Shown here piece after piece: positions 4,863-54,509 of a stretch of DNA of 64,000 nucleotides (positions are counted from its first letter, which is position 1; the number at the start of each line of letters is the position of its first letter). This DNA is from Methanotrichaceae archaeon (GTDB lineage: Archaea > Halobacteriota > Methanosarcinia > Methanotrichales > Methanotrichaceae). The notes under the pieces were generated by a model. That model saw only the letters and a program-made list of their open reading frames with translations, was not told where the DNA came from and ran no database searches. Both the position numbers and the translations under genes were made by a program. The stretch is taken from the NCBI GenBank assembly GCA_013178225.1, contig JABLXE010000015.1, positions 1 through 64,000 on the forward strand, in the 5' to 3' direction.

Positions 4863-6224
4863 TTATTCGTCACATTCTGCGCTTTTTTTACGACGTCTGC
4901 CTTCATCCGAGATCACCTCTTCGAAAAATCCATACTTCATCTTCAAGCTCAGCATTTCCGGAAGCATATACCTAATTTGCTGGCATGTTTCCTGAGAATT
5001 ATCATACAATACGCTATACGGGCAACCTCCCATGCAAATAGGCATAAACTTGCAGCCCTTGCATTTCTCTCTTTCAAATGGATCATAAGAAAGCCACCTG
5101 ATATACGTGTCATTCTTTTCCTTCTGGAGGACGGATCCTATTCTCTCCTGTCTCCGACCCACGCTATTCCAGCATTTTGATATATCTCCATTGGCGTCTA
5201 TGACGAAGCTGTCCATGCAATCCGCTGTGCAGTAATTCCCGTAGAGCTTGGGATTTATAGTAATGTCGAATCCTTTCTCTGCTGCTGATTTTGATAGTTT
5301 CAAAAAAATTCCTGCAAAATCCTCTTTTCGCAGACAAAACTTCTCTATTTCATGGCATATTTCCGTAAAAGGTTCAACCTTCGTAACTGATACAGATATC
5401 TTATCCGTCAACCCTTTCTCGTCCAATACATCAAGAAAATCAGGAACCTTTTCCCAGTTTCGGCTATCGATATTCACGCGAAGAAATACACGCTGGAAAA
5501 GATCTACATTTTCTAAAATATTTTTCAAAATCCTATCGAAGGTGCCTTTTCCATTTCTCAATGTGCGCCTTGCATCATGAATTTCCCTGATGCCGTCTAT
5601 CGTGACCTGCCAATTATCGACAGCAAGCTGCTCTGTAAGGATCTTGGCGTTTCGCCTGCTCATCAAATAGCCATTAGATATGATATCTGCAGAGTACTTG
5701 ATGCCCATCGTCTCGCAGATTCTGATGAATTTGGTTGAAAGATAACTGATCTTGTTCATCGCAAGAAGCGGCTCTCCACCATACCAGGTAATCCCAAGAG
5801 AATTCTTATCTTTCAGGTGAACTAATGTGAAATCATAAACCGCATCCATGATCCGCTGTGTCATAGATGTCTTTGCCGATCCCTCAAAGCAATAATCGCA
5901 ATTGAAATTGCACATCAAGGTCGGAGTTATTGTTAGGGAGAGGCTATTCACGTAAAAACGCCCAAGGCGGTTACGCACCTTCAGTTCAGCTAATTCATCT
6001 TTTGATTCATCGACTATGATTCCATTTTGAAATAGCACATCAATAACCGCCTCTGAACATTCGGAATTCCGGCACCAATCCTTGCTGCAATCGTAAACAA
6101 AAGCGATCGTCTCCTGATCAACTTCTAAAAGCGAATCACGAAATGTGTTATAAATGTAATGTCGATTTTCATTTTCAAAAATTATATTATATTTAGAGGC
6201 TTTAAACGAGCCCGATTGCATCAT
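4863..6224 (-). CDS. Radical SAM / SPASM-domain enzyme with an ~100-aa N-terminal extension; candidate peptide (RiPP) maturase, alternatively an anaerobic sulfatase-maturase-like enzyme
   Basis: CNFNCDYC (CxxxCxxC) sits near residue 105, followed by a WYGGEPLL glycine-rich motif. The C-terminus has a Cys-rich SPASM-like segment (CKGCKFMPICMGGCPYS). A GGTGA ribosome-binding site lies just before the ATG. The gene is AT-rich compared with its flanks. Confidence 0.8.
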   Translation of the reverse strand: MMQSGSFKASKYNIIFENENRHYIYNTFRDSLLEVDQETIAFVYDCSKDWCRNSECSEAVIDVLFQNGIIVDESKDELAELKVRNRLGRFYVNSLSLTITPTLMCNFNCDYCFEGSAKTSMTQRIMDAVYDFTLVHLKDKNSLGITWYGGEPLLAMNKISYLSTKFIRICETMGIKYSADIISNGYLMSRRNAKILTEQLAVDNWQVTIDGIREIHDARRTLRNGKGTFDRILKNILENVDLFQRVFLRVNIDSRNWEKVPDFLDVLDEKGLTDKISVSVTKVEPFTEICHEIEKFCLRKEDFAGIFLKLSKSAAEKGFDITINPKLYGNYCTADCMDSFVIDANGDISKCWNSVGRRQERIGSVLQKEKNDTYIRWLSYDPFEREKCKGCKFMPICMGGCPYSVLYDNSQETCQQIRYMLPEMLSLKMKYGFFEEVISDEGRRRKKSAECDE

Positions 6225-40640: not shown

Positions 40641-41802
40641 ATGAGGCAACTTTTCGCACAGGGATCGAAATCGGTTTCCAGCGAGGTATTCGAGGTCGAT
40701 GATGGTCTTCCGGTATTGAAGATGCTGATCGAAGGGCGTTGGCAGGAGGCTCTGGATGGCACTCGTATCGATGTCACCACTCCTATTGGCGGCTCTATAT
40801 TTACCAAAAGTCCCGCAGGGATCGGCGAAAAGATGTGGAGCGTGCGGCCAGATTGGCCATAGAGGAGCGCAAAATCAGGGACCTTCCGGCTATCGAGCGC
40901 ATTGAGGTCTTCAACTGCGCGGCGGCGATGATCGAGCAGCACAGGGAAGAGTTTGTTGCGCGCGCTGCAGCCGGAGGCTGGAAAAACCTTTCGGGACGTG
41001 GTTGGCGAGGTGAAGCCCCCAATGGGGAGAGAATGCCGCAAATAGCGAGGATGGAACACTCTACCTGGAGCTGGGAGGCATAGCCGTACGCTCTGGTGCT
41101 GCTGGATGCCGACCAGGATCTGGCTGCGAAGAGGTGCGTTTGTGAGTCGCTGGAATTCTCAGGCCAGCGGTGCGATGCGGTCAGAGCAATGCGGGCTGAG
41201 GATCCGATTGTTGATGTCCTGAGCGAGAAGATCCTTGCTGGAGGTCGATAGATGGAAGATCGGAGATCCGCGTGATTCATCGGTCACTATTAGGCCGGTA
41301 ATCGAACGAGTGTAGGCCTCAAGAGTTCATGATCCGGTCACGAACGCAGTGCACAGCGGGACCAACTTCTTCGGGGCGGCAGGTTCGAAGGACCTACTTC
41401 CAGCCGACTGTTCCGGACCATGTCCCCTTTAATTCAGAAATCGCGAAAGAAGAGATATTCGGCCCGATGGTATCTATCGTCCGGATCCGGGATATGTCCA
41501 AGGGCCTGGAGTTGCCCCAAAAGTCACGTTACGGCCTTGAGTCCTGCATCTTTAGCCGGGACTTCTACAAAATGTGGCAGGCTGCCAAGGCTTTGCAGTG
41601 CGGAGAGGTGGCGATCAACGACTTACCCCATCACGGCGTGGGCTATTTTCCCTTTGGAGGGATCACAAACTCCGGAACGGGACGGGAGGCGATCGGCTAC
41701 AGAATTGAAGAGATGATTAATACCAAGACCATTTGTCTTCAATCTGGCCGCGGGCGGTTTGGGAAAAATGGTGCAGGATGCTGGGACCTGCAACAAGGAT
41801 GA
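40641..41802 (+). pseudogene. Degraded NAD(P)-dependent aldehyde dehydrogenase (multiple frameshifts plus an internal deletion)
   Basis: An N-terminal piece (LIEGRWQEALDGTRIDVTTPIGGSIF, 40641..40862), a middle piece in another frame (40739..41083) and a C-terminal piece (EEIFGPMVSIV...YGLESCIFSRD...PFGGITNSGTGRE, 41329..41802) together span about 1.16 kb, against about 1.45 kb for an intact ALDH. Confidence 0.7.
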
Positions 41803-41804
41803 GG

Positions 41805-43169
41805 TTAGCGGACAACAGGGCACTTGACCGACTTCCAGCCCGATAGTCCCCCCAGAATTACCGCCAGATTCTCCCAGCCTCGGGCCTCTAGGTAGCTGGC
41901 GGCAATCGTGGAACGCATGCCGCTTCCGCAGAAAATATAAACCTCCTGATCCCGAGAAACCTCTTTGTGCCTCTCCGGGATTTGAGTCACGTGAATATGC
42001 TGGGCTCCGGAGATGCGGCCGTTCCGCAAAAGCTCCTCATCGGACCTGACATCCAGCACCGCTGCTTCATGGCTTTGATCGATTGCCCGGCAGAACTCCT
42101 GCACGGTCACCGTCTTCAGAGAGCGGCTGTCCTTTCCGGACATGTGCCAGGCCAGCATTCCTCCGGAGAGGTACCCGGCGATGTTATCGTATCTCTCTCT
42201 GATCAGTATCCTTACAACTTCTTCAGGGTTGTTGCCCTCAGTCAGGAGAAGTATGGGCTGGTCGTAGCTGAGATACCAGCCGGCAAAGCTGGCCAGGCCG
42301 TCGGCCCAGATGAACTGCGAGCCGGGCACGTGTGCTGCCGAGAATCCCAGCTCCGTCCTGGTGTCCAGGACCTGCGCCCCTGCTGCCAGGGCCTCGAACT
42401 TTTGGGGAGAGAGAGGATTTGGAGTCGGCAGCCGCTCCATTAGCGGCTCACCTTCCAGATTCACTTTCTCCATCATGTTGAAATATGGCGGCTTCTCGGG
42501 CTGGGTTTTGGTCTGATTGGAGACGAACTCATCTTTGTTCCTGACCTGCAGCCTGGGGTTATGCTTGCGCTCAATTCCTATGGCGGTCCACAGTCGATCA
42601 GCAATGGACTCTCCGCAGACCGAGCCCGCACCGTGAGCCGGACAGACTATAACGTCGTCTCCTAACGGAAAGAGCCGGGAAAAGATGCTCTCGTAAAGAA
42701 GCCCGGCCATCTCTATAGCCCGGTCCCTGCCCAGGAGATCGGTTCTGCCCACGTCCCCGGCAAAGAGCGCGTCTCCGGAAAACAGAATCCAGGAGATGCC
42801 ATCAGCATCTCTGAGCAGATAGCTCATGCTCCCGGGAGTGTGTCCGGGGGTGTGCAGGGCTTCTATCTCCAGACGGCCGATCTTCCACCGTTGTCCGTCT
42901 TCTGCTGCTCTTCCGTATTCATACTCCCACTGATCATCAGCGTGCCAGATCTCGGCTCCCGTTGCCTGAGCCAGGGCAGAAGACCCCACGAAATAATCCT
43001 CGTTGCGGTGCGTCTCCAAGATGCGGGCGATCTTCATCCCCTCAGATGCGGCTTTTTCTATATAGATCTCGAAATCGCGTCTGGGGTCGATTGCCACTGC
43101 TGAGTCTTTATCGCCAACCAGGTATGAGTAATGGGCCAGGCCTTTGGATACTATTCTCTCGAAAAGCAT
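41805..43169 (-). CDS. Metallo-beta-lactamase-fold / rhodanese fusion protein (persulfide dioxygenase-sulfurtransferase-like)
   Basis: An MBL HxHxDH-type motif region (THRNEDYFVGSSALAQATG...LHTPGHTPGS) is followed by two rhodanese-like modules. The preferred start is the Met of MLFERIV at 43167-43169, which has a GGAGG ribosome-binding site 7 nt upstream. The track's 43310 start overlaps the next gene. Confidence 0.8.
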   Translation of the reverse strand: MLFERIVSKGLAHYSYLVGDKDSAVAIDPRRDFEIYIEKAASEGMKIARILETHRNEDYFVGSSALAQATGAEIWHADDQWEYEYGRAAEDGQRWKIGRLEIEALHTPGHTPGSMSYLLRDADGISWILFSGDALFAGDVGRTDLLGRDRAIEMAGLLYESIFSRLFPLGDDVIVCPAHGAGSVCGESIADRLWTAIGIERKHNPRLQVRNKDEFVSNQTKTQPEKPPYFNMMEKVNLEGEPLMERLPTPNPLSPQKFEALAAGAQVLDTRTELGFSAAHVPGSQFIWADGLASFAGWYLSYDQPILLLTEGNNPEEVVRILIRERYDNIAGYLSGGMLAWHMSGKDSRSLKTVTVQEFCRAIDQSHEAAVLDVRSDEELLRNGRISGAQHIHVTQIPERHKEVSRDQEVYIFCGSGMRSTIAASYLEARGWENLAVILGGLSGWKSVKCPVVR

Positions 43170-43188
43170 GATTCGCCTCCAAAGATGC

Positions 43189-44160
43189 TCATTTGCGGCT
43201 CTCGCCGACGATGGTCGAATTTTCGGGATGAGATGACCATTCCGTGAACGACCCTTCGTAGATCCTGACCTTCTCGTGGCCGAGATAGAATTTGAAGAAC
43301 AGGAACTCATTGGTGGCCTCGCGCCCCGTGCCGCAGTATATGATGAGGGTCTTTTCCGGCGTGATATCGAACCTGGATATCAGCTGCTTCAGCTCGGAAT
43401 CCGGCTTCATCAGCTTGGAGTTCTCTTCGGCCATGAGCGAACGCCAGGGAAGGCTGTTGGCCCCTGGAATGTGGCCTTTCTTGATCCACAGGCCTCCCTC
43501 CTTGTAGAACTCAAAGGGACGGGCATCAAAGAGGATCACGTCAGAGCGGTCTTTGAGCTTTTTGAACTCATCATATTCCACAAAGAACTCGGATCTGACC
43601 TCGACCTTGAAATCCGATTCCTGCCATTGCGGAAATGCTTTCGTAAGCTCTCCACCCTCTTCTTTCCACTTCTCAAGTCCGCCGTCCAGGATGAAGATCT
43701 TATTGTGACCAAACCGGATCAGGGAGTAGGCCATCATGGTCTGCTCCAGGCCGTCGCCAAGACCCGAGGTGCACTTGCTGTACCTCCCGGTGGCGGAATA
43801 GATTACTGTTGCGCGGTCGTTGTTGACTCCTGCGCGATCCAGCACTGGCTTTAGGGCCTCCGGTTGAACGTACATAGAGGGCAGCCGGTTCCAGGCAGAA
43901 CGGAGCAATCCTTCATTTAGATACACTGCATTGGGAAGGTGACCCATGATGTAATCGTGGACATTTGGCTGAACGTCCAGAATAGTGAGATCTGGATCGT
44001 TCACATGTTCTGCCAGCCATTCTGTTGATACCCATTTAACGAGGCTCTCACCCGAAGGAAAAGGATAGCGCTTCATGCATATCTCCACCAGTGATAAATT
44101 TTCGAAAGAGATGCTTGAAGACAGAAAGTCTACATGCATCGGTACGATATTATATTGCAC
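43189..44160 (-). CDS. Tandem-rhodanese sulfurtransferase (thiosulfate/3-mercaptopyruvate sulfurtransferase-like)
   Basis: There are two rhodanese domains. The C-terminal one has the active-site loop IIYCGTGREATNEF, and the N-terminal one is the inactive type. Confidence 0.8.
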   Translation of the reverse strand: MQYNIVPMHVDFLSSSISFENLSLVEICMKRYPFPSGESLVKWVSTEWLAEHVNDPDLTILDVQPNVHDYIMGHLPNAVYLNEGLLRSAWNRLPSMYVQPEALKPVLDRAGVNNDRATVIYSATGRYSKCTSGLGDGLEQTMMAYSLIRFGHNKIFILDGGLEKWKEEGGELTKAFPQWQESDFKVEVRSEFFVEYDEFKKLKDRSDVILFDARPFEFYKEGGLWIKKGHIPGANSLPWRSLMAEENSKLMKPDSELKQLISRFDITPEKTLIIYCGTGREATNEFLFFKFYLGHEKVRIYEGSFTEWSSHPENSTIVGESRK

Positions 44161-44325
44161 TTTTCTAATTTATCTAATTATCCCGACATCATCAATATCA
44201 ATCGGCCAGCCCGTCAGTCGGACTTCGCCAGATTTATGCTTCATTCTTCGATATCAATTGACTTCAGTTAACCTGACCCGGATCGATCCGGCTTTCTTCG
44301 GATTTCGAAATTCTCATGGGAAGCC

Positions 44326-44814
44326 TCATAGGTTCAGCCACCAGATCGAGATGTTGAGGAAGGCGGCGAAGCTTACCCATAGGATATATGGTACCATAAG
44401 AAGTGCTGCGGCCCTGGATATCGGAAGAAATCTGATGATGGTGAGCAGTATCAGCGCCCATAAGATCAATATCACCACTATCCCCGCGAGCGGCGATTTC
44501 AGTCCGAAGAAAGCCAGGCTCCAGAGCACATTTACTACCAGCTGGAGGGCGAAGATGATCAGCGCTGCCTTGACCTCAGGCTTTTCTGTTCCTTCTCTTA
44601 TCACCAGAAATAATGCAAGGCCCATCAGAGTGTACAGGATTATCCAAACCAGGCCGATGAACCATCCCGGTGGAGTGAACGCCGGTTTGATCAGTGTTGG
44701 GTACCAGCCCTCTAGCGAGCTGGCGGTGAAAAATGATCCCGCAATTCCTGCAGCCTGACATATCAATATGCTCAGCACGAGCTTAGGGATTTCCCCCTGT
44801 CTGATGTCGTACAT
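44326..44814 (-). CDS. tspO: TspO/MBR (tryptophan-rich sensory protein) family membrane protein
   Basis: The protein is 162 aa with five TM segments and a W/F-rich pattern (GWYPTLIKPAFTPPGWFIGLVWIILY...NVLWSLAFFG). Confidence 0.75.
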   Translation of the reverse strand: MYDIRQGEIPKLVLSILICQAAGIAGSFFTASSLEGWYPTLIKPAFTPPGWFIGLVWIILYTLMGLALFLVIREGTEKPEVKAALIIFALQLVVNVLWSLAFFGLKSPLAGIVVILILWALILLTIIRFLPISRAAALLMVPYILWVSFAAFLNISIWWLNL

Positions 44815-44873
44815 AATGCAAAACCTCGGGTCTATTAAGCAAATTTGTTAGGAGTGTTCTATGGACCTGGATT

Positions 44874-45260
44874 CTAATTTAATTTTTCCTGTGCTTCGAA
44901 TCTCAGCTCCTCGTCTTCAGCCCTCCATCTGGGAAAAACTATGCATAGAAATCTCAGATCTTCTGCGCCGTTATTTTCCAGGTGCTGCCAGGAGCCAGGA
45001 GGAATGAATGCCGCCTGACCAGCCTGGATGAATTCCTCCTGCTCATCGATAGAGATCCTGGCCTTTCCCTGGATGATGAAATATACTTCAGATGATCCTT
45101 TCAGACGATGGGCCAGAGAAGATCCTCCTGGACCAAGAATGGCATAGGCAATGCTATATGGGATTTCGATCTTTTCTCTGTCCGGATGCATGAGTTCGCA
45201 GATTGAGGTTTTGTCCAGAGCTTCAAACCATCTACATTCATTTTGATCTTTAATAATCAT
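44874..45260 (-). CDS. Cupin-domain protein
   Basis: The protein is 128 aa with a beta-barrel cupin pattern (HPDREKIEIPYSI...GSWQHLENNG). Confidence 0.55.
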   Translation of the reverse strand: MIIKDQNECRWFEALDKTSICELMHPDREKIEIPYSIAYAILGPGGSSLAHRLKGSSEVYFIIQGKARISIDEQEEFIQAGQAAFIPPGSWQHLENNGAEDLRFLCIVFPRWRAEDEELRFEAQEKLN

Positions 45261-45503
45261 GGATATCTCTCGCTAATCAGCTCTTGAGGATGAGCATGAC
45301 TCAGACATAAATTTTCCTGAGGATCGAAAATGAATCCTGATTCGGATCTTAAAGGCTTGGTTTTGCTGATTGTAACCCTTCAATTTTTGGTTATTATTTC
45401 GTCTACTGATTTAAGATTTGAACCACCTTTTATTAGATACTCTTAGGAGAATCTATTCCTACTGCCTTATAATAAATACGGTATAACTTTTTAATAAAAA
45501 TTC

Positions 45504-46469
45504 ATGGGAGGAGATATGAGATATATATTGGCGACCATGGCTATGCTGGTTGTCCTTTTCTCAGCAGGCGCAGCTGCCGATGAAAAGATTGTAATCCCCA
45601 GCATACCCAGCGTAGCTGCCACAACCAGCACGTATGTTATGCCCGATGTGCCAATGCCAAGCATAACCAGTTGCGAGAACCCGACCAGCTCTAGCTGCCC
45701 GACTACTTGCGGTTGTATTACCAGCCTTGGATGTCCGAGCGGATCCACCTGTCCAACCGGGTCTGGATGCCCCACCGGTTCGTACTGCATTTCAGGTCCC
45801 GGTTGTGCTTCAGGTCCTGGCTGCAGCACCAACTCCTACTGTCCAACTACTTGCGGCTGTGCGACAGGGGCCCTCTGTCCGACAGGATGCGATTGTGCAA
45901 CCCAATCAAGCTGCCCTACAGGCCCAGGATGCACAACCAACGCCAACTGCCAGACATGCTCTGACTGTCCAACCGGCTCGTCCTGCCCGACCGGGGGAGA
46001 ATGCACAACCAGTTGCCACTGCCAGACATGCTCTGACTGTCCAACCGGCTCGTCCTGCCCGACTGGAGGAGAATGCACAACCAGTTGCCACTGCCAGACA
46101 TGCTCTGACTGTCCAACCGGCTCGTCCTGCCCGACTGGAGGAGAATGCACAACCAGTTCCTACTGCCAGACATGCTCTGACTGTCCAACCGGCTCATCCT
46201 GCCCGACCGGGGGAGAATGCACAACCAGTAGCCACTGCTCAACGTGCTCCGAATGTCCAACTGGAACCAAATGTCCAACTGACTCCGGCTGTCCCAGTGG
46301 TGTAAGGTGTCCGAGCACCAGCAGGTATCCAACAGCTGGGGAGTGTCCCACAGGTTCGAACTGTCCCAGCGGCGGCAGATGTCCCACAGGGACGGGTTGC
46401 TGTGTTTGCGGCCTGTGTCCTACCGGGAGCGGATGCTCGACATCGTGCAGTGATTATCGGTCCGGCTAA
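45504..46469 (+). CDS. Secreted, extremely Cys-rich CPTGS-heptad repeat protein (about 20% Cys)
   Basis: A signal peptide is followed by about 250 aa made of C-P-[TS]-G-[SG]-x-C style heptads, including four near-identical 24-aa units (CQTCSDCPTGSSCPTGGECTTS[CS][HY]). A purine-rich ribosome-binding site (GGGAGGAG) precedes the ATG. Confidence 0.7.
   Translation: MGGDMRYILATMAMLVVLFSAGAAADEKIVIPSIPSVAATTSTYVMPDVPMPSITSCENPTSSSCPTTCGCITSLGCPSGSTCPTGSGCPTGSYCISGPGCASGPGCSTNSYCPTTCGCATGALCPTGCDCATQSSCPTGPGCTTNANCQTCSDCPTGSSCPTGGECTTSCHCQTCSDCPTGSSCPTGGECTTSCHCQTCSDCPTGSSCPTGGECTTSSYCQTCSDCPTGSSCPTGGECTTSSHCSTCSECPTGTKCPTDSGCPSGVRCPSTSRYPTAGECPTGSNCPSGGRCPTGTGCCVCGLCPTGSGCSTSCSDYRSG
45951..46238 (+). 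repeat. Four tandem copies of a 72-bp unit inside the Cys-rich protein gene
   Basis: Units start at 45951, 46023, 46095 and 46167 (CAGACATGCTCTGACTGTCCAACCGGCTCGTCCTGCCCGAC...). There are no more than 3 substitutions per unit. The unit is in-frame (24 codons). Confidence 0.9.
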
Positions 46470-46547
46470 CCCGACCAATAGAGCTAATATTTTTTTTTAA
46501 AAATTATAATTTAAATTGTGATGAATTGAGGTCCGTTCCAGCGGTAA

Positions 46548-46886
46548 TCAGGTCCTGAGTCTCGCCAGAAGAACGCAAGCTGTCCGTCCACCTGAGTAGA
46601 ACTCCAGAGCGGCCCTGGCCACACTCGAGCTGAATTCAGGACGAACCCTGATGCAGACTCCAATCCCTTTGCCGCAAATGGCGAAGGCCACTGCCAGATG
46701 CCCCAGATCGGGGTACACCTGAGCGTTGTTTCCCAGGGTGCAGCCGGATACAGCCTGTACTTCGTCGGCAAAGCAGGCGTTAAACTCTACCAGGGCCAGA
46801 TTTCGCTTTAAATCTCCCATTCTTCTATCTTCTGCGGAGATTTGTGGTGGTTCCGTTTCGCTCAATCCAACCATCTCTAAATCCAA
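46548..46886 (-). CDS. Small FmdE-domain-like protein (C-terminal-half motif only)
   Basis: NACFADEVQAVSGCTLGNN matches the FmdE-family C..D..Q...TGCT.GK motif. The HxCPG half is absent. Confidence 0.35.
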   Translation of the reverse strand: MDLEMVGLSETEPPQISAEDRRMGDLKRNLALVEFNACFADEVQAVSGCTLGNNAQVYPDLGHLAVAFAICGKGIGVCIRVRPEFSSSVARAALEFYSGGRTACVLLARLRT

Positions 46887-46896
46887 CCGTCTCTGA

Positions 46897-47418
46897 TTAA
46901 AGTTTCCTTAGCTCGTCTACCGCTCTCAGGATTACGGACCTGATCTTCTCCCGATCGGTACCAGTCTCCAGGAGATCAGCAACCTGGTGAATCAGTAGAG
47001 CGAGCAGCTCCATATGTTCATTTACGGGAACTCTCATTCCTCGGTGAAGGTTATGCATATCTTTCATCAGATCCTGAACATCGCCCTCCTCGAATGTTTC
47101 GCTGGCCAGGGCTATGGATCGATGAAGCTTATTGATAAATTCATGTTTGGCGTCATTTATCTGAGCAACGTGTTCCCGGCCGGTATCCGTCAGGCTGTAG
47201 TAGGTCTTGCCATCCTCCATCCTTCCCGATATCCAGCCTTCCCGTTCCATCTTCTTCAATAAGGGATAGATCGACCCTGTGCTGGGTTTCTTGCCGGTAA
47301 TCGCTTCCACTTTCTTTATTATATCGTAGCCGGATGCCTCACCATCCTTCATAATGTGAAGCATAATCATCTTCAAGATGCCAGTTGCCATTAGATCTGT
47401 ATCGCTATATCGATGCAT
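46897..47418 (-). CDS. PadR-family transcriptional regulator
   Basis: The N-terminal winged helix (ILKMIMLHIMKDGEASGYDIIKKVEAITG...PSTGSIYPLLKKMEREGWISG) is followed by a C-terminal dimerisation helix. Confidence 0.8.
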   Translation of the reverse strand: MHRYSDTDLMATGILKMIMLHIMKDGEASGYDIIKKVEAITGKKPSTGSIYPLLKKMEREGWISGRMEDGKTYYSLTDTGREHVAQINDAKHEFINKLHRSIALASETFEEGDVQDLMKDMHNLHRGMRVPVNEHMELLALLIHQVADLLETGTDREKIRSVILRAVDELRKL

Positions 47419-47609: not shown

Positions 47610-48695
47610 TTAAGAAGATTCAACTCCCAGCACCTTCAGAGGATTGATGCCTGCGCCCTGAAGGACCTGGAGATCGTTCAAGCTCTCCAGATGAAACTCC
47701 TTTATTGTAGAAACGAAGTCCTCGGGGGAGTTGGCTGAGTCCATCAGAATCTCGTCCATCTTCAGCCTCCATGCCCAGGCGGGCCAGGTGTCGGAGTGGC
47801 TCATGTTAAAGCCCTTATCAAGGTCGAATCCCAGCACCAGGCCGTCACCTGAATTGGACGACGCATTCCAGCGGACAAATATTCCGGCCACGCTGGTATT
47901 GTATTTTTTCTTCAAGGCATTGGTCTCGTCTGTGGTGAGGTATTTGACGAACATGCCGCTCTTTCCGGGGGTGCAGTCCCATGCTGCCAGGAAGTAGTCC
48001 TCTTTGCACCAGTTGGGACAGCTTATAACCTTGTAGCTCTGGTTATTATAATCGGTAATCGGGAGCTTATCCTCGACATACTTTGCCTCCAAGAAGCCGC
48101 TGGAGATTCCAGGGCAGAGGTGATCGTGCAGCTCGACCGCTTTCATGAATATGTATGTGGCATTTTCGTGGGCCCACATGTTGGCGATGGGAAGCATGTG
48201 ATCAAAGAATCCCGGTTTCCAGGTATCCTTATTGGCCAGGACGTGGTCAATGTTAATCTTATCCGTTTTCTGGACCTCAAAACCTGTAGCGTTAGCGTTT
48301 ACCTTCATGTAGACAGCCTTGCCGGTGCTCTTATCAAAAAAGCCAAACCATAGCGGTTTCCATGGCGGACTTTGTACATCGACGAGGTTTTCCTTGCCCG
48401 GTGTGCAACCAGAAATATCCATCAATGCATCCAGGCACAAATTTGTGGTCTGACCATTGATCACCGGATATCCGGCATTGGTGAGCGTCAGCACATTCAC
48501 ATCACCCTTCTCGAATCCAAGCTCATCCATGGCATGGTTCGCGGCATCCGCGCCCAGCTGGTACATATCCACTTCGCTGCAAAGAGCCATTCCAGGCAGC
48601 ATAGCTATTATGAGCAGAATTGATACTGCAAATCGATCTATTCTCACATTCTCACCTTTTTGTCTCCTTTCATATGAATATATCTTTATCGACAT
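47610..48695 (-). CDS. Secreted FmdE-domain protein, paralog A
   Basis: Both FmdE motif halves are present but in permuted order (LTNAGY...CLDALMDISGCTPGKENL, then HDHLCPGISSG and a second pair CPNWC). A signal peptide (MSIKIYSYERRQKGENVRIDRFAVSILLIIAMLPGMALC) is present, with a start at ATG 48695 or GTG 48644. It shares HDHLCPG...YKVISCPNWCKED with the 57308..58366 protein. Confidence 0.7.
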   Translation of the reverse strand: MSIKIYSYERRQKGENVRIDRFAVSILLIIAMLPGMALCSEVDMYQLGADAANHAMDELGFEKGDVNVLTLTNAGYPVINGQTTNLCLDALMDISGCTPGKENLVDVQSPPWKPLWFGFFDKSTGKAVYMKVNANATGFEVQKTDKINIDHVLANKDTWKPGFFDHMLPIANMWAHENATYIFMKAVELHDHLCPGISSGFLEAKYVEDKLPITDYNNQSYKVISCPNWCKEDYFLAAWDCTPGKSGMFVKYLTTDETNALKKKYNTSVAGIFVRWNASSNSGDGLVLGFDLDKGFNMSHSDTWPAWAWRLKMDEILMDSANSPEDFVSTIKEFHLESLNDLQVLQGAGINPLKVLGVESS

Positions 48696-48740
48696 GTCTA
48701 TGAGATATAAATATGTTTTGACTAATTCGTAACCATAATT
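48672..48740 (-). promoter_or_regulatory. Promoter of FmdE paralog A: TATA box plus operator-like box
   Basis: On the minus strand TTTATATCTCAT reads as a TATA box, with TATCGACATGTCTA just downstream. The approximately 90-bp block ATGAGATATAAATATGTTTTGACTAATTCG...ATTTCATAAGAATTGATCCAAGG is about 85% identical to 51109-51190. Confidence 0.4.
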
Positions 48741-48819
48741 ATGATTATTTAACATTTATTTCATAAGAATTGATCCAAGGGACAGGAAAGATTTAAATTT
48801 TAAAAATTAAAATTATTTT

Positions 48820-49833
48820 TTATTTTTTAGCTATATCAATATCCATCGGCCCCCACCCAGTTTGGATGGTGCGAGACCGTACCGATCTGAATCCGGCCTT
48901 CAGCATGGCATCGGCAATGAAGCCCTGCTCGAAGGCCATCATCGGCCCGTTCATGGCCCAGCCCACAGTACAGAGCACATAGAAGTCCGGCTTCGTTCCC
49001 TCATCAGTAAGGCCTTCAGAAAGGTTCACGAAAAGGCCGCCGGGATTGAGGGCCTCGTAGATCTTCTTCATAACCGCGTCCATATTTTCTCGGGCGAAGT
49101 TGAGGGTGGCACTTGCCCAGATGAGATCGTAACCCTCACCGATGGGATCAAGATTGTAATCTCCGGCAAGAACCTCCATCCGGCCTTCCATTCCATACTC
49201 TTTGATGAACCTCTCCGCAACCTCGACCACAGGCTTTCGGTCAAAGATCACTCCCCTCATAGTGGGATGCTTTGCGACCATTGAAATTCCGAAGATGCCA
49301 GGACCGCCGCCCAGATCCAGCATCTTTTGAAATGATGAGAACCCCGGCTGCAGAGAGACCAGATCGGACATCTGCTGGGCAATTCCTGCTCGTTCATTAT
49401 TGGCCATCCAGGATGCAAACTGGCTCCATTTTTGAGGATCGGCATCGTCCTCCTCAGACTTTGCCGGCGGTCCCTCTCGGATCATCTTTGTCAGGTTTGT
49501 CAGCATCGCATCGGTCATGGAGGCCTGATGGGCAAACCCTTCTCCCAAATAGGTCGGGCTTCCCTCAACCAGAAAAGCCTGCGCAATTGGTGCGTTCCGA
49601 TAGAGGCCGTTATGCTTTTCTATCAGGCCGCAGGCGGCCAGGCCATTTAAAAATAGCATGGTGTTCCGGGATTGACCTTCGATCTCCTTCGCCACGTCCT
49701 CTGCTGATTTGGGCTCGGATAGCTGGTTAAAAACTTTTAGCTCGATTCCACTCATCAGCAGCTTGGCTTTAATAGGAGCATAAAGCATCCTGTAAAGCTC
49801 CTCGCAGCTGACATTTACCTCTGGCAGATTCAT
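48820..49833 (-). CDS. Class I SAM-dependent methyltransferase, O-methyltransferase family-2-like (N-terminal dimerisation/winged-helix plus MTase)
   Basis: Motif I is LDLGGGPGIFGISMV. An acidic residue after beta-2 (VIFDRKPV) is present, and the length fits the plant/bacterial OMT-type fold. Confidence 0.65.
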   Translation of the reverse strand: MNLPEVNVSCEELYRMLYAPIKAKLLMSGIELKVFNQLSEPKSAEDVAKEIEGQSRNTMLFLNGLAACGLIEKHNGLYRNAPIAQAFLVEGSPTYLGEGFAHQASMTDAMLTNLTKMIREGPPAKSEEDDADPQKWSQFASWMANNERAGIAQQMSDLVSLQPGFSSFQKMLDLGGGPGIFGISMVAKHPTMRGVIFDRKPVVEVAERFIKEYGMEGRMEVLAGDYNLDPIGEGYDLIWASATLNFARENMDAVMKKIYEALNPGGLFVNLSEGLTDEGTKPDFYVLCTVGWAMNGPMMAFEQGFIADAMLKAGFRSVRSRTIQTGWGPMDIDIAKK

Positions 49834-49887
49834 TGAGATTTCTCCTATTTCTGAAGTTGTATTGGGCGATCACTTGACAAGGTCAAT

Positions 49888-51060
49888 TCAGGTTATCTCC
49901 AGGTAGCGCAAAAGCTGCGCGTCAATAAGCTCGTTTGCCTTCTCATCGTCCACGTCGTAAAGCTCTCTGAAGTAATCCTCGATCCACTCTTCGAGATCGA
50001 TGTCCTCGAAACGATCTGGATATATTGCCTTCGCCGCTATCATCAGATGTATTGGAAATTCAAGCCGTTCATCCCTGTAAGGTGTAGCCGCAAGTGAATG
50101 TACCCGTTCGTCTTTTAGGGCTTTTAGCTCCTGGACTTTTTCAAACTGGCTGCCGTTATACATTACACTGGGAGGATGGTAGCCGGAGTATGTCGGCAAT
50201 ATTATCACATCGGGATCTATGGATAAAAGGCGCTCAGCTGAGATGAGCTCTGTATTGGTGCCGTCATAAGCGTTCTTGGCATTGATTATGTCCTCCAGGA
50301 ATGCTGATTCGATGGTGTCTGTGCCAAAGGCATAACCTGCGCCTCCTTTGTCCTTCGCGTAAGAGGACGCACCGAAGTACAGAACACGGGGACGATCTTT
50401 TTCTGAAACATCATTTGTCCTCTCCCTGATCAGCTCCACCTGTTCTTTCATGAGGTCAACGATCTTCTCTGCCTTCTCCTGTTTTCCAAATACCTCTCCC
50501 AGGAGCCTGACCTCTTCATAAATGGTGCTGACGCTCACATCATCATAGCAATCGGGATACTTCAATACCACAACGGGTATCTCCAGCCGCGACACTGCGT
50601 CCAGGAATTTAGCAGTATTTTCATCATCTGCACCCTGATCCCTCATTATTAAAAGATCCGGATCAAGTGAGGCTACAACCTCTACGTTGGGTGCAACTCC
50701 AAGGGGCCCGCCAAAAGCTCCTACATTGGTGAGATTTCGATACTCCGGATTGAGCACAAAGGAGATAAAAGGGCATATGCGATGGATTTCATTGTCATAA
50801 GTATAGTTGCCGTATCCATTGTCCTTATTGTATATGCTTCCGCCTACCAGCTTATCCTGCACGCCGAATGCATACATGGTCGTGTCTATAATTCCTCGGC
50901 TGATCGCGATGACCCTCTGCGGATCCTCCGGGATCGAAACCTGGACTCCGCGCATGTCGGTTACTGTCTTATAATCCTCTGCGACAACCGACACCACCTG
51001 CATAGCGACTATCGCCATTAAGATAGATAAAATCTGCATTCTTTTGGATTTTGTGATCAT
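49888..51060 (-). CDS. ABC-importer substrate-binding protein, FecB/BtuF (iron-siderophore/corrinoid) type
   Basis: A signal peptide is followed by a class III PBP pattern (two lobes linked by a long helix). LSIDPDVIIL and VVASLDPDLLIM are typical FecB blocks. Confidence 0.8.
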   Translation of the reverse strand: MITKSKRMQILSILMAIVAMQVVSVVAEDYKTVTDMRGVQVSIPEDPQRVIAISRGIIDTTMYAFGVQDKLVGGSIYNKDNGYGNYTYDNEIHRICPFISFVLNPEYRNLTNVGAFGGPLGVAPNVEVVASLDPDLLIMRDQGADDENTAKFLDAVSRLEIPVVVLKYPDCYDDVSVSTIYEEVRLLGEVFGKQEKAEKIVDLMKEQVELIRERTNDVSEKDRPRVLYFGASSYAKDKGGAGYAFGTDTIESAFLEDIINAKNAYDGTNTELISAERLLSIDPDVIILPTYSGYHPPSVMYNGSQFEKVQELKALKDERVHSLAATPYRDERLEFPIHLMIAAKAIYPDRFEDIDLEEWIEDYFRELYDVDDEKANELIDAQLLRYLEIT

Positions 51061-51075
51061 GGTTTCCTCCTGATA

Positions 51076-51140
51076 TATCGATACAGACGTGTCGATAAAG
51101 ACGTATCAAAATGAGATATAAATACTTTTTGACTCAATCG
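51076..51140 (-). promoter_or_regulatory. Promoter of PBP 49888..51060: TATA box followed by two palindrome boxes
   Basis: The boxes ATATATCGATACAGACGTGTCGATAAAG contain the 8-bp palindrome TATCGATA and lie between the TATA-like element GAGATATAAATAC and the start codon. Confidence 0.4.
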
Positions 51141-51252
51141 AACAGATATAATATGAATATTAAGCATTCATTTCACAAGAACTGATCAAGGCACCAAAAG
51201 GCTCAACCGATTTTGCAGATAAGGCGAGGGTCATAGGTCAAAGGCCAAAAAG

Positions 51253-51290
51253 CATTTATATCTATATCGATATGTCTGCGTCGATATATC
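51253..51290 (+). promoter_or_regulatory. Promoter of the 51351 operon: TATA box plus ATATCGATAT palindromes
   Basis: The sequence is CATTTATATCTATATCGATATGTCTGCGTCGATATATC, an inverted copy of the 51076 boxes, sitting in the divergent intergenic region. Confidence 0.4.
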
Positions 51291-51350
51291 AAATTAGCAA
51301 ACTTAAAGCAAGTGCACTTGCTTAAAATATCTAATGCAACTCGGATGTGA

Positions 51351-52613
51351 TTGAAGGTGATCCAAATGAGATATCTTGTGATATTGGCATCGTGCATTTT
51401 AGCGGCTTTGTCCGCTAATGCATACGATTTCACTTTGAGCGTTTTTGGAAATGCCAATATGGACGACATCATAGATAATAATGATATAGCATATGTCCAG
51501 GGCATAATCGATAGCAGCAATGGAGCTACTGATCTTGCGGATGCAAATTGTGATGGCCATATCGACGAGAATGACGTCAATCAAATTGAATCGATAATAT
51601 CTGGCAAAGCGGTAGAGCTTACTCTCATTGATAATGAAGGCGTGACGGTTACCCTAAACGCGCCTGTAGACAGCGTTGCCACTTTATTTTTAGGAGCTCT
51701 AAGGCCGGTTATTCATCTCAAAGCTATCGATAAGATAATTGGTGTAGGAAGCAATACCCTGGCCAGGCCCGACAATGTGGTGGAGTTGCATGCCCATCCT
51801 GAGCTGAGGGGGCTTCCAGGAATAGGGACCACAAGCGACCCTTCAAAGGAGACCATAGTCTCACTTAAGCCGGATGCGATCTTTGGGACCCTTCACACGG
51901 ATAAGGAAACTTCAAAGGCCGTTTCTCAGAGCACAGGCATTCCTTTTGTATATGCCAATCCGTCGAAAGAGGTATTTCGCGAAGAAAATGGCGCTTTTGA
52001 GACCTGGAGGTTGCTGAGCCTAATATTAGGAAAGGACGAGCAAAAAAGATCTGAAGAGCTGATAGATTACTGCGATGAGAAGATCAACGAAATTGTGGAA
52101 GTCGTCTCTGAGGTCCCTGATGAAGACAAAACCAGGGTTTACATTGCCTGCACCAGCAAATCAGGCATAACCAGTACCGCCAATGTCTACGAGCCTATAG
52201 AAATCGCCGGCGGTAAAAACGTTGCAGAAGGAATGGCCGGGAGCGATTCCTGGGGGCACGTCGATGTCTCAAAGGAACAGATCATCGACTGGGACCCGGA
52301 GATAATTCTGATCACCTGCTATTCCAAGGAAAACTGGATAACTGTGGACGAAGTTTTATCTGATCCCGCGTTGCAGACCGTCAGTGCGGTAAAAAATAAG
52401 CAGGTCTACAATACGAAGGGCTGGTATGCAGGCTGGGATCCTGCAACGGGTCTATGTGAATGCCTATACATGGCCAAGCTGTTTTATCCCGAGAAATTCG
52501 AGGACCTTGATGTCGAAGCAGAATGCAACGAGGTGCTTGAAGAGTTCTACGGAGTCAGCGGACTGTACGACTGGATGCTGGAGAACTGCGGGGATTACTG
52601 CACCTGGAAGTAG
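51351..52613 (+). CDS. FecB-type substrate-binding protein with an N-terminal dockerin-like double repeat
   Basis: The signal peptide is followed by two EF-hand-like repeats of the type seen in type I dockerins (NANMDDIIDNNDIAYVQGIID and DANCDGHIDENDVNQIESIISG). After these comes an FecB-type periplasmic binding fold. Confidence 0.75.
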   Translation: MKVIQMRYLVILASCILAALSANAYDFTLSVFGNANMDDIIDNNDIAYVQGIIDSSNGATDLADANCDGHIDENDVNQIESIISGKAVELTLIDNEGVTVTLNAPVDSVATLFLGALRPVIHLKAIDKIIGVGSNTLARPDNVVELHAHPELRGLPGIGTTSDPSKETIVSLKPDAIFGTLHTDKETSKAVSQSTGIPFVYANPSKEVFREENGAFETWRLLSLILGKDEQKRSEELIDYCDEKINEIVEVVSEVPDEDKTRVYIACTSKSGITSTANVYEPIEIAGGKNVAEGMAGSDSWGHVDVSKEQIIDWDPEIILITCYSKENWITVDEVLSDPALQTVSAVKNKQVYNTKGWYAGWDPATGLCECLYMAKLFYPEKFEDLDVEAECNEVLEEFYGVSGLYDWMLENCGDYCTWK

Positions 52614-52639
52614 GCGAAAAAAAAAGCAAGTTGTGAAAT

Positions 52640-53713
52640 ATGTCGTCTCAATCAAAAGTAATTGAACTGGATATAATCGAGGCACAGTACACGCAGTTCC
52701 TAGGGAAGAGGTACCTCTTCCTCCTCGTCCTGGCCCTCATAACCATTGCGCTGGCAGGCACGGCCGTTACACTTGGCGTGATCAAGCTTTCGATCGGACA
52801 GGTCTACGAGGCAATTCTTCATAACTTCCTTCCCGATCAATTCCAGGCAACCGAGGAAGCCCAGCGAGTGGTCTGGAACATCCGGCTGCCTCGAATACTT
52901 TTTGGGATATTAGCCGGCATGGGCCTGGGGATAGCAGGAGCAGTTATGCAGGTGGTTCTCAAGAACCCCCTGGCCAGCCCTTACACACTGGGCATATCGT
53001 CCGCAGCCGGATTCGGAGCTGCGGTGGCCATACTCCTGGGCCAGGGTTTTTTCGGCAGCTATCTCATTGCAGGAAACGCCTTTGTATTTGCCCTCCTCTC
53101 ATCGATGATCATTGTGGCCATAGCCAGACATAAGGGTGCCACTCCAGAGATAATGGTCCTGTCGGGAATTGCCATCATGTACTTCTTCTCGGCCTGCACT
53201 ACACTGCTGGAGTACTTTGCTGACTCGGATGCGGTCAAAGGCGTGGTCTTCTGGATGGTCGGAAGCCTTAGCAAAGCATCATGGAACGAACTATATGTGC
53301 TCTGTTTCGTGCTGGCGGTTTGCATTCCCATCCTTGTCTGGAAGTCATGGGATTTCAACGTCATGAGTTCAGGGGATGAGACGGCGAAAAGCCTGGGAAT
53401 AGATGTGGACAGGACGAGAAACCTGTCAATGATTATCTCCAGCCTGATAGTGGCAAGCATCGTGGCCTTCACAGGGACCATAGGATTCATCGGTCTGGTG
53501 GCCCCTCACATCGCCCGCATGGTCGTAGGGGGAGACAACAAGTTCGTCCTGCCGGGATCAGCGCTATTGGGCGGACTGCTGCTGGCAGGAGCTGATGTTG
53601 TGGCCCAGCATATCATGCCGCCTGTCATCCTTCCTATTGGAGTCATGACTGCCTTCATGGGAATTCCCCTGTTCTTCTATCTGATAATGAGGCGGAGAAA
53701 GGGGTACTGGTAG
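52640..53713 (+). CDS. FecCD/BtuC-family ABC importer permease
   Basis: The protein has about 10 TM segments. The conserved FecCD blocks RLPRILFGILAGMGLGIAGAVMQ and LSGIAIMYFF are present. Confidence 0.85.
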   Translation: MSSQSKVIELDIIEAQYTQFLGKRYLFLLVLALITIALAGTAVTLGVIKLSIGQVYEAILHNFLPDQFQATEEAQRVVWNIRLPRILFGILAGMGLGIAGAVMQVVLKNPLASPYTLGISSAAGFGAAVAILLGQGFFGSYLIAGNAFVFALLSSMIIVAIARHKGATPEIMVLSGIAIMYFFSACTTLLEYFADSDAVKGVVFWMVGSLSKASWNELYVLCFVLAVCIPILVWKSWDFNVMSSGDETAKSLGIDVDRTRNLSMIISSLIVASIVAFTGTIGFIGLVAPHIARMVVGGDNKFVLPGSALLGGLLLAGADVVAQHIMPPVILPIGVMTAFMGIPLFFYLIMRRRKGYW

Positions 53714-53738
53714 AAACCATTTATACAACGAGACGATC

Positions 53739-54509
53739 ATGGTGCTCAAAGTCAAAGATTTGGTCTTCGCCTATTCCGGCGTGAAGATCCTGGATCGAGT
53801 ATCGCTGGAGCTGGAAAGGTCAGAGGTCCTGGGAGTTATAGGACCAAACGGGGCAGGCAAATCCACCTTGATCAGGTGCATGAACAGGGTGCTCAGACCT
53901 CAGAGCGGGAAGATAACACTGGACGGGATCGATATCAGAGATATGGATAGGATAGATATCGCTCGCAGGATGGGATACGTCCCGCAGGCCTCCAAAAACT
54001 CCTTTCCGGCCACGGTCTTCGATACGATCCTCATGGGCCGGAGGCCCCACGGAGGATGGAAAAGCAGCTCAAGCGACGTTAAGAAAGCTCTGGAGGTGCT
54101 AAAGCTGGTTAGTTTGGAAGATCTGGCCATGAGGGACTTCACTGAGCTTTCCGGAGGGCAGCAGCAGAAGGTAGTGCTGGCTCGAGCCCTGGTCCAGGAG
54201 GCGGAGGTGCTCCTGCTGGATGAGCCCACCTCAAACCTGGATATCAGGCAGCAGCTTGAAACTATGGAGATCATCAGAAGGCTGGCTAAAGAGAGGGGCA
54301 TATCCGCCCTGATGGCCGTACACGATCTGAACCTGGCGGCGCGATACGCCGACAGGATAGTAATGCTCAAAGGCGGCCGCGTCCTCGATGCAGGTGATCC
54401 TTTTTCGGTGTTAACTGCAGAGAACATCAAAGCAGTATATGGAGTGGAGGCAGCGGTGAAGGAAGACGACTGCAGACCCTATATTTTGCCGAGAGGTTCT
54501 GTGAAATAG
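53739..54509 (+). CDS. ABC transporter ATP-binding protein (FecE/BtuD type)
   Basis: Walker A (GPNGAGKST), the signature LSGGQQQKV, Walker B (LLLDEPTSNLD) and an H-loop are all present. Confidence 0.9.
   Translation: MVLKVKDLVFAYSGVKILDRVSLELERSEVLGVIGPNGAGKSTLIRCMNRVLRPQSGKITLDGIDIRDMDRIDIARRMGYVPQASKNSFPATVFDTILMGRRPHGGWKSSSSDVKKALEVLKLVSLEDLAMRDFTELSGGQQQKVVLARALVQEAEVLLLDEPTSNLDIRQQLETMEIIRRLAKERGISALMAVHDLNLAARYADRIVMLKGGRVLDAGDPFSVLTAENIKAVYGVEAAVKEDDCRPYILPRGSVK

Follow-up and report, generated by a model that had tools for sequence, protein, structure and literature searches.

The beetle antifreeze protein TmAFP is a beta-helix of 12 residues per turn, which does without a hydrophobic core and is filled by the Cys, Ser and Ala residues present at each third position. 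Its repeat follows the motif TCTxSxxCxxAx (PMC4204002). Sheathed archaea have DsbB/DsbD-type proteins, the hoops of the Methanospirillum sheath are disulfide-linked and the Methanothrix sheath is amyloid-like (PMC11576556). Here we analyse a gene from a Methanotrichaceae archaeon, located in a 64,000-nucleotide stretch of DNA (contig JABLXE010000015.1 of assembly GCA_013178225.1, positions 1 to 64,000, hereafter the window). Its product is a secreted protein composed almost entirely of a six-residue Cys repeat, which we call the CPTG hexad. A first-pass annotation of the same DNA had noted this open reading frame (ORF) and its Cys richness. The protein appears to be a Cys-rich tandem-repeat extracellular protein and a candidate Cys-ladder solenoid. 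We tentatively read it as a narrow solenoid rod serving as an envelope module, with a probability of about 0.4.

The 317-residue product begins with a signal peptide, which ends with AAA before DEK and lacks a lipobox Cys. The same n-h-c layout is found in the homologues L004, L005, L006 and L011, which supports the earlier proposal that the protein is secreted. The Cys-free segment that follows is not conserved in the orthologues. Altogether 55 of the 317 residues are Cys (17.4%). From the first Cys (residue 53) onwards, the 265 remaining residues comprise 20.8% Cys, 17.7% Thr, 17.0% Ser, 15.1% Gly and 10.6% Pro; these five amino acids account for 81% of the region and hydrophobic residues for about 4.5%. 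The protein terminates with CCVCGLC and contains no globular domain at all. Its hexads are consecutive and in register (Table 1), each Cys being preceded by G, S, D or E. Twenty-eight of the Cys spacings are plain C-x5; the remainder correspond to hexads with a second Cys (CQT-CSD, CTTS-CH, CPTT-CG), and in a single hexad Tyr replaces Cys (YPTAGE). The first-pass annotation was thus right to describe a protein made nearly throughout of Cys repeats, but the period is six residues and not seven: its "heptads" result from counting both flanking Cys.

We defined a CPTG-hexad family by a signal peptide or other extracellular context together with at least eight in-register C-[P/x]-T-G-x-x hexads; the window protein, with 42 of them, belongs to it. 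Scanning the GTDB species genomes with the peptide pattern CPT[GF][GSA][EG]CTT identified nine loci: eight in four Methanotrichaceae metagenome-assembled genomes (MAGs; L003-L010), which carry up to three hexad paralogues per genome, and one on a Dehalococcoidia-binned contig (L011). Over residues 1-312, identity to L003-L010 and L011 is 40-45% in the best tblastn segment. The Dehalococcoidia-binned contig (JAUWGZ010000065.1, 7.3 kb) encodes stand-alone CPTG/CxTG hexads with a signal peptide and a (PT)n linker, and reflects either a true spread beyond archaea or a binning error. A metagenome scan with the pattern CPTGxxCPTGxxCPT returned at least 120 stretches, with further small secreted hexad members among the matches listed.

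The hexads are used in a modular way. Type A proteins consist of a signal peptide and hexads only (the window gene, L004, L005, L006, L011 and L010; the N-terminus of L010 was not recovered, and its close relative L038 has a signal peptide). In type B proteins (L003, L007, L008, L009 and P0002), a signal peptide and up to about 60 hexads precede a domain of about 270 aa resembling DUF6612 (PF20316), with a score of 20.5 bits that is below the Pfam threshold of 23.7 bits. Other architectures combine a transmembrane (TM) anchor, hexads and a NosD beta-helix (P0001), a C1A peptidase, CARDB, a Pro/Thr linker and C-terminal hexads (P0097), or hexads, a coiled coil and a C-terminal TM segment (L045); in L020-type proteins, hexads are combined with a poly-Thr stretch. 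A subfamily of small secreted proteins (L038, L064, L118, L022, L051 and L126, with L010 in a Methanotrichaceae MAG) begins with xPTGH hexads, for example CNAPTGHISPT, and then runs on in CPTGxx hexads that contain CC doublets and are arranged as nearly perfect tandem units of 12 aa (about 8 copies of CCPTGKDCVTGS). L022 and L051, both complete, contain 5-7 CC and 5-7 His, and L126 contains 3 CC and 3 His, a composition strongly suggestive of metal binding.

Family searches found little. No Pfam family matched the window protein at E<=10, and the NCBIfam scan gave no family and a single collagen-like noise match at 15.4 bits. A word-indexed protein search yielded 2 matches with the single protein and 6 with the family alignment, the filter of 8000 candidates being swamped by eukaryotic Cys-rich repeats. 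When 1.84 billion representatives were searched exhaustively with HMMER, 95 mostly compositional matches were obtained; the top one (P0003) aligns to the Cys-free N-terminal segment and not to the hexads. Against plasmids, tblastn found only compositional matches to collagen-like or hypothetical genes, and a literature search retrieved no description of CPTG/Cys-hexad proteins in Methanothrix/Methanosaeta. The first-pass statement that no characterised family accounts for this protein agrees with the absence of significant family matches in Pfam, NCBIfam and the PDB sequence search. We regard these proteins as an undescribed, fast-evolving and uncurated repeat family, whose full-length relatives so far come only from Methanotrichaceae MAGs and the Dehalococcoidia-binned contig.

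To describe the repeat, we built a profile from 449 hexads of 10 proteins. Position 1 is Cys in 99% of hexads and position 2 is Pro in 47%, otherwise Thr, Val, Ala, Ile or Leu. Position 3 is Thr (81%) or Ser (14%), position 4 is Gly in 53% and a small residue in 94%, position 5 is Ser in 47% and position 6 is Gly in 37%. Hydrophobic residues are essentially limited to positions 2 and 6. The presence of Pro at position 2 alternates from one hexad to the next: after removal of near-duplicate hexad pairs, the correlation was -0.30 at lag 1 (z -5.2 against shuffles), +0.15 at lag 2 (z +3.6) and -0.12 at lag 3. The alternation therefore indicates a unit of 12 rather than 18 residues. Independent tandem duplications occurred in most members; units made of hexads only are multiples of 6 aa, mostly 12, 24, 36 and 48, while longer duplicated units that contain non-hexad segments measure 81 or 93 aa.

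We propose that the window protein is a Sec-secreted, stand-alone copy of a modular extracellular (C-[P/x]-T-G-x-x)n repeat, which would fold as a narrow solenoid in which each turn takes up two hexads (12 residues). The inward-facing residues would be every third one, Cys at position 1 alternating with the small residue at position 4, and this cysteine ladder would replace a hydrophobic core as it does in TmAFP. Cys pairs could be held by disulfides or by bridging metal ions, giving a stiff, chemically resistant rod. Its length would evolve fast through in-frame duplication of whole units, in this case 24 aa, or two turns, four times. In the relatives, where enzymes or binding domains are fused to the hexad module, it may act at the cell surface as their stalk or means of attachment. 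For the stand-alone protein we envisage a structural or cross-linking component, associated with the envelope or sheath, whose surplus thiols would be exposed. The sequence data show the gene with its frame and export signal, the family membership and modular use, the 6- and 12-residue periodicities and the independent expansions; from these features we infer the fold, the cross-link chemistry of the Cys, the envelope location and the physiological role.

The source family, Methanotrichaceae, comprises acetate-using methanogens. The window DNA is 100% identical to two contigs (L001 and L002) of the Logan short-read assembly of SRR6186653, a metagenome from Western Siberia, where the 5P borehole taps a deep aquifer; Methanosaetaceae MAGs were reported from it (PMC7509429). 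This borehole was drilled to 2.8 km, with a productive horizon expected at about 2 km; its water has a temperature of 19.8 C at the wellhead, a pH of 7.5 and a redox potential (Eh) of -329 mV, and contains 15.7 mg/L H2S and 1.5 mg/L Fe (PMC7509429). The relatives originate from digesters and sediments.

A phmmer search of the PDB gave TmAFP (1EZG) as the sole relevant match, with Cys in register over 80 residues (10 bits). Alignment of the family profile with TmAFP by hhalign was suggestive (probability 60%, pairwise E 8.7e-5, 57 columns). In the 1EZG sequence, TmAFP hexads read C-x-x-[S/A]-x-x with an alternating position 2, which is the same inward pattern. A Cys-ladder solenoid is favoured because the CPTG family reproduces the inward-position constraints of TmAFP. 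The first-pass annotation had suggested an ice-binding-like beta-solenoid, and the sequence pattern, with its 6-residue Cys spacing, small residue at +3 and 12-residue periodicity, indeed resembles that of the beetle protein. Ice binding itself is implausible. The richness in Thr and the in-register alignment with 1EZG would suit an antifreeze protein homologous to or convergent with TmAFP, but the T-C-T (T-x-T) array that forms an ice-binding face was not found in the window protein, which has x-C-P-T or x-C-T-T instead. Moreover, the insect antifreeze family (PF02420) does not match, and the organism comes from a deep aquifer delivering water well above freezing, with relatives living in digesters and sediments. 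We consider this explanation extremely improbable.

Several observations weigh against the solenoid. The database match to TmAFP lacks statistical significance, and the Pfam insect antifreeze model gives no support. AlphaFold2 produced no confident model: the predicted local distance difference test score (pLDDT) was 46 with the single sequence and 36 for a 139-aa core with a 5-sequence alignment, values equally compatible with disorder. A Foldseek search of the PDB with the low-confidence model found no match, the query being too poor for this to be meaningful. The order of residues at position 2 in the window protein, P,P,T,Q, follows a 24-aa period with no simple 12-aa alternation, and some relatives (L008, L045) duplicate units of 18, 30 or 42 aa. 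The Cys count is odd in 6 of 13 complete members, including the window protein, and not all Cys can therefore form intramolecular pairs. Lastly, exposed disulfides should be reduced in the sulfidic, low-potential habitat described above.

The low pLDDT throughout would also suit a flexible, probably O-glycosylated linker or matrix protein rich in Ser, Thr, Pro and Gly, which would form no solenoid and whose Cys would cross-link envelope proteins. The biased composition and scarcity of hydrophobic residues are consistent with such a protein, as are the hexads of P0097, which occupy a linker-type position beside the Pro/Thr linker, and those of L020-type proteins beside poly-Thr. Odd Cys counts in some members fit intermolecular bonds, and disulfide-linked hoops are known in archaeal sheaths. 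A linker, however, would hardly need a Cys register kept in 99% of 449 hexads, a small residue in 94% of positions 4 and a significant 12-residue alternation, nor would it explain the strong purifying selection acting on the exact motif despite saturated synonymous change. We judge this alternative unlikely. Membership of the protein in the archaeal sheath (SH/MspA) proteins, which have an amyloid-like two-sheet core domain, also seems unlikely, as its composition shows no beta-sandwich-type hydrophobic pattern; an association with the sheath is hypothetical.

The reducing sulfidic habitat, the odd Cys numbers, the CC doublets and the His residues make metal-bridged or free thiolates a serious possibility. 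The protein could be an extracellular metal-thiolate binder in which reduced Cys, with some His, coordinate Fe, Ni, Co, Zn, Cu or metal-sulfide clusters, acting as a buffer, scavenger or detoxifier for a methanogen with a high Ni/Co/Fe demand in sulfidic water. The regularity of the repeat would then place ligands instead of building a disulfide core, and could coexist with a rod fold. Cys makes up 17% of the protein; it is densest in the expanded 24-aa unit (up to 7 Cys per 24 aa), which displays metallothionein-like C-H-C-x2-C-x2-C spacings, and the C-terminal CCVCGLC as well as the His/CC subfamily point in the same direction. The Eh, H2S and Fe values of the borehole water disfavour disulfides. 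On the other hand, conservation of T3, G4 and the alternating P2 equals that of Cys, an uncommon feature among metallothioneins, and in surface proteins of several domains the hexad module serves as the stalk or terminal piece. Metallothioneins are cytosolic proteins of less than 10 kDa, whereas this one has 317 aa and a signal peptide, and neither Pfam nor NCBIfam returned a metallothionein or other metal-binding family.

Gene context was also considered for metal binding. The hexad gene adjoins PadR, FmdE, Peripla_BP_2, FecCD and ABC-ATPase genes, which form a metal-chelate-type uptake cluster convergent with it. The first-pass annotation had placed the gene directly upstream of this PadR/FmdE transport module. 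We do not retain this as a functional link: the module lies on the opposite strand, convergent, past the T9 run, and is absent beside the syntenic orthologues; no counterpart of the PadR, FmdE or ABC genes was found at any of the nine homologous loci. The adjacency is thus positional only. Overall, metal-thiolate binding is a serious competitor of the solenoid reading, somewhat less likely than it but compatible with it, and may be the functional side of the same structure. A bolder extension, which we regard as a long shot, is that CPTG-hexad rods are extracellular metal-sulfur or thiolate ladders, holding a linear Fe/Ni/Co (or Fe-S) array for metal capture from sulfidic water or for conductive electron uptake. 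Such ladders would give cytochrome-free Methanothrix-type methanogens a means of trace-metal capture or a redox-active surface for interspecies or mineral electron uptake.

Other folds and classes were tried and rejected. The left-handed hexapeptide beta-helix (PF00132; [LIV]-[GAED]-x2-[STAV]-x, 18-residue turn) has no Pfam match in the window protein, which carries Thr and not an aliphatic residue before Gly; in the family the lag 3 correlation is negative and the lag 2 correlation positive, and most tandem units are of 12, 24 or 48 aa. A collagen-like, SclB-type Gly-rich adhesin (NF038329; Gly-X-Y) scored 15.4 bits against a cut-off of 325. A precursor of ribosomally synthesised and post-translationally modified peptides (RiPPs) of the lanthipeptide or SCIFF-like type does not fit the Sec-type signal and the cupin, TspO, FmdE-like and PadR neighbours, and no RiPP modifying enzymes (LanM/LanB, radical SAM) were found at the orthologous loci.

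The four near-perfect 72-bp repeats announced by the first-pass annotation were recovered by Tandem Repeats Finder (72-bp period, positions 45929-46261, 4.6 copies, 92% matches, score 543). In codon register, units 1-4 are 90.3-100% identical in pairwise comparisons, units 2 and 3 being identical, and variation between units is concentrated in three residues (NAN, SCH, SCH and SSY). A DNA pattern for C-P-T-G-x-x-C has 16 matches in the 64-kb window, all on the + strand inside the hexad gene, compared with 0.02 expected from shuffles. The array is lineage-specific: the syntenic orthologues L004 and L005 lack it, in line with the recent expansion that had been proposed, and L004 carries a 24-aa expansion of its own. 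The short-read contig L002 ends at window position 45975, inside the first 72-bp unit, consistent with an assembler failing at the array; the L001 contig ends at window position 47364, inside the PadR gene. Because the short-read contigs stop at or around the array, with positions 45976-47363 lying outside both, the copy number of the repeat depends on the window's own assembly.

To establish which frame is translated, we aligned the codons with those of L004, L005 and L006, guided by the proteins, and counted differences at codon positions 1/2/3. These amounted to 126/115/212, 128/122/212 and 120/117/201, respectively, and to 37/27/129 between L005 and L006. In addition, 95-111 residues identical between the window protein and L004-L006 are encoded by different, synonymous codons. 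On this evidence, the C-P-T-G motif is kept by selection in the Cys frame despite heavy DNA divergence. The accumulation of differences at third codon positions of the Cys frame identifies it as the translated one and is incompatible with antisense coding, as the excess would then sit at codon position 1 of the antisense frame. In type B relatives, solely the Cys frame connects the signal peptide to the conserved C-terminal domain.

The true product could in principle be an overlapping ORF in another frame or strand, or the repeat DNA could be non-coding. Long off-frame and antisense ORFs are indeed present in the window and in all homologues, and the Cys-frame product has no self-match in a 15-billion-protein collection, though its neighbours from the same NCBI MAG (HPY61_ locus tags; accessions in Table 1) are present there as exact matches. 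The antisense ORFs stay open, however, because TGY, CCN, ACN and GGN codons yield no antisense stops; substitutions gather at the third codon positions of the Cys frame, corresponding to first positions when the antisense frame is aligned codon by codon; and the signal peptide, Shine-Dalgarno sequence, ATG and TATA element are all conserved. Together with frame continuity in type B relatives, these data lead us to conclude that this is a real gene translated in the Cys frame, and make the alternative barely credible. The ORFs on the other frames and strand, which had been dismissed as repeat-induced artefacts, are indeed artefacts of composition.

The family is nearly invisible in protein databases because gene callers trim type B proteins to their C-terminal domain. 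Thus, the entry P0099 has 288 aa compared with a 609-aa ORF in L008 (6073-7902). The public gene calls P0099, P0100, P0106 and P0111 start internally and lose the signal peptide and at least 300 residues of hexads. Accession continuity indicates exactly one annotated protein, inferred to be NPV63484.1, between the cupin and small FmdE genes. Exact look-ups of 14 alternative products (other starts, frames and strand, Cys frame included) found none in the 15-billion-protein collection. Gene calling fails systematically on CPTG-hexad repeat genes.

The ORF at 45504..46469 exists as originally listed, but its start was corrected. The ATG at 45516 aligns with the ATG of three homologues downstream of a conserved GGAGG, whereas two of three aligned homologues have no ATG at position 45504; we therefore moved the start to 45516. 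Upstream sequences were aligned with positions 5881-6000 of each of L004, L005 and L006, which belong to other Methanotrichaceae genomes and include a paralogous locus. Mean column identity is 81% over the 165-bp alignment 45396-45560, made up of about 120 nt of upstream sequence and 45 nt at the start of the coding sequence (CDS). These 120 nt are better conserved across genomes and paralogous loci than the coding repeats. The TATA-box-like element, some 40-45 nt ahead of the ATG, aligns with a conserved sequence of the homologues, TTATTATAAA, and the GAGGAG block is invariant in all four aligned loci. Further invariant blocks are seen besides the TATA box and the Shine-Dalgarno sequence, and this conservation suggests a regulator-binding site common to the hexad-gene loci. 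Downstream, a T9 run probably acts as a terminator; oligo-T termination is established for archaea.

The syntenic orthologues of the window gene are L004 and L005. TspO is 60-62% identical in both, and the cupin (53% identical) occurs only next to L004. At that locus, as in the window, TspO and cupin lie upstream of the hexad gene and are transcribed away from it, on the other strand. The sulfur-transfer or persulfide-type enzymes at 41805-45260 adjoin this hyper-Cys gene, and of that run TspO and cupin alone are syntenic in orthologues. Neighbours of the stand-alone orthologues are glyoxalase-like, GNAT, ABC_transp_aux/DUF4350, MMPL and transposase genes, and those of the type B relatives are MetRS, molybdopterin oxidoreductase and PAS kinases; operon partners sought beside both sets gave no consistent functional link. 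Elsewhere in the window, several short ORFs that overlap at about 40739-41802 include an aldehyde-dehydrogenase remnant (called as Aldedh, 111 aa, in L002) and look like a frameshifted or decayed gene. The G+C content along the window forms a mosaic (0.42 at 4-7 kb, 0.57-0.60 at 7-11 kb and 0.60-0.62 at 32-37 kb), which may correspond to islands or highly expressed genes.

Table 1. Coordinates of the hexad gene, its signals and repeats, and its neighbours in the window.
Feature	Position	Strand	Remarks
MBL-fold/rhodanese fusion, rhodanese, TspO (NPV63482), cupin (NPV63483)	41805-45260	-	same-strand run, divergent from hexad gene
Conserved 5' regulatory region	45396..45515	+	alignment with same region of L004, L005, L006
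Archaeal TATA-box-like element	45467..45478	+	TTATAATAAATA; read from sequence, putative function
Shine-Dalgarno sequence	45507..45511	+	GGAGG, 4 nt before ATG 45516
CDS, corrected	45516..46469	+	317 aa + stop; start by ATG/N-terminus (MRY...) alignment with orthologues
Sec-type signal peptide	45516..45578	+	residues 1-21, MRYILATMAMLVVLFSAGAAA before DEK; n-h-c layout, read from translation by eye
Cys-free N-terminal segment of mature protein	45579..45671	+	residues 22-52 (31 aa), Pro/Ser/Thr/Val-rich
42 consecutive in-register Cys hexads	45696..46451	+	residues 61-312, consensus C-[P/T]-T-G-S-x
Four near-identical 72-bp (24-aa) units	45930..46217	+	CTT(NAN/SCH/SCH/SSY) CQTCSD CPTGSS CPTGGE
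Units 1-4 in codon register	45930-46001, 46002-46073, 46074-46145, 46146-46217	+	pairwise comparison
Diverged fifth unit	46218..46289	+	61-68% identical to units 1-4
T9 run, likely archaeal transcription terminator	46490..46498	+	21 nt past stop; putative function
Small FmdE-domain protein (NPV63485)	46551-46874	-	108 aa
PadR (NPV63486)	46897-47418	-	
FmdE-domain protein (NPV63487)	47610-48755	-	381 aa, signal-like N-terminus
O-methyltransferase, two Peripla_BP_2 proteins, FecCD permease, ABC ATPase (NPV63492)	48820-54509		

How filaments and granules form, how metals are taken up and how the cells meet syntrophic partners and minerals all depend on the envelope of these methanogens. A lineage-restricted, multi-copy and rapidly expanding hyper-Cys extracellular family is unexpected in a strict anaerobe whose habitat is at -329 mV. 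Should the Cys-ladder solenoid be confirmed, prokaryotes would possess a counterpart of the beetle antifreeze fold that serves a different purpose, and if the thiols bind metals, the family would bear on trace-metal acquisition or electron uptake in Methanothrix. It also provides a concrete case for mending gene calls in low-complexity, antisense-open repeat genes.

Comparison with known systems starts with the DUF6612-like surface proteins of type B, which carry the CPTG hexad module at their N-terminus and come from the same organism family; unlike them, the window protein has no globular domain. Other Cys-hexad proteins share Cys every six residues, Gly at position 4 and runs of 10-24 hexads, but their flanking domains differ, they are uncharacterised and their homology to the CPTG family is unproven. 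One group (P0006, P0009 and P0010; C-[ST]-x-G-x-x) has an N-terminal Cys-rich domain and a C-terminal TM segment and lacks Pro-Thr. The other (P0013, P0027, P0029, P0031, P0041, P0089 and P0092; C-x-[LIF]-G-x-x) has a hydrophobic position 3, and its motif fits the left-handed hexapeptide [LIV]-G-x2-[STAV]-x, with Cys at the small inward position.

High-sulfur keratin-associated proteins, which glue keratin filaments, resemble the window protein by their short Cys tandem repeats, their rapid copy-number evolution and a cross-linking role that would be plausible for a fibrous proteinaceous sheath. Their sequences are unrelated, however: they are made of pentads with CC, are eukaryotic and are intracellular before cornification, while the partner filament of the window protein is putative. 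Metallothioneins, too, are rich in Cys and poor in aromatic and hydrophobic residues, and have spacings such as the C-x-C, C-x2-C and CC seen here in the expanded unit and at the C-terminus; the reducing habitat of the window protein would leave thiolates free for metals. The window protein differs from them in being secreted, of about 30 kDa and without a family match, and in its strict six-residue register, conserved non-Cys positions and modular fusion to surface enzymes.

The closest parallel is with the beetle TmAFP/DAFP proteins (1EZG), right-handed beta-helices with a disulfide core. Both have Cys every sixth residue, a small residue three after each Cys, a 12-residue period at position 2 (for the CPTG hexads, in the family profile), almost no hydrophobic residues, a Thr/Ser/Gly-rich composition and an extra Cys in some hexads. 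The window protein differs from them in showing no significant homology (E=2.9) and no Pfam antifreeze match, its family having P-T-G after Cys in place of the T-C-T ice-binding strand; it is about 3.5 times longer (42 hexads versus about 14), contains an odd number of Cys and comes from a strict anaerobe of reducing, non-freezing water, and its solenoid fold is a proposed one.

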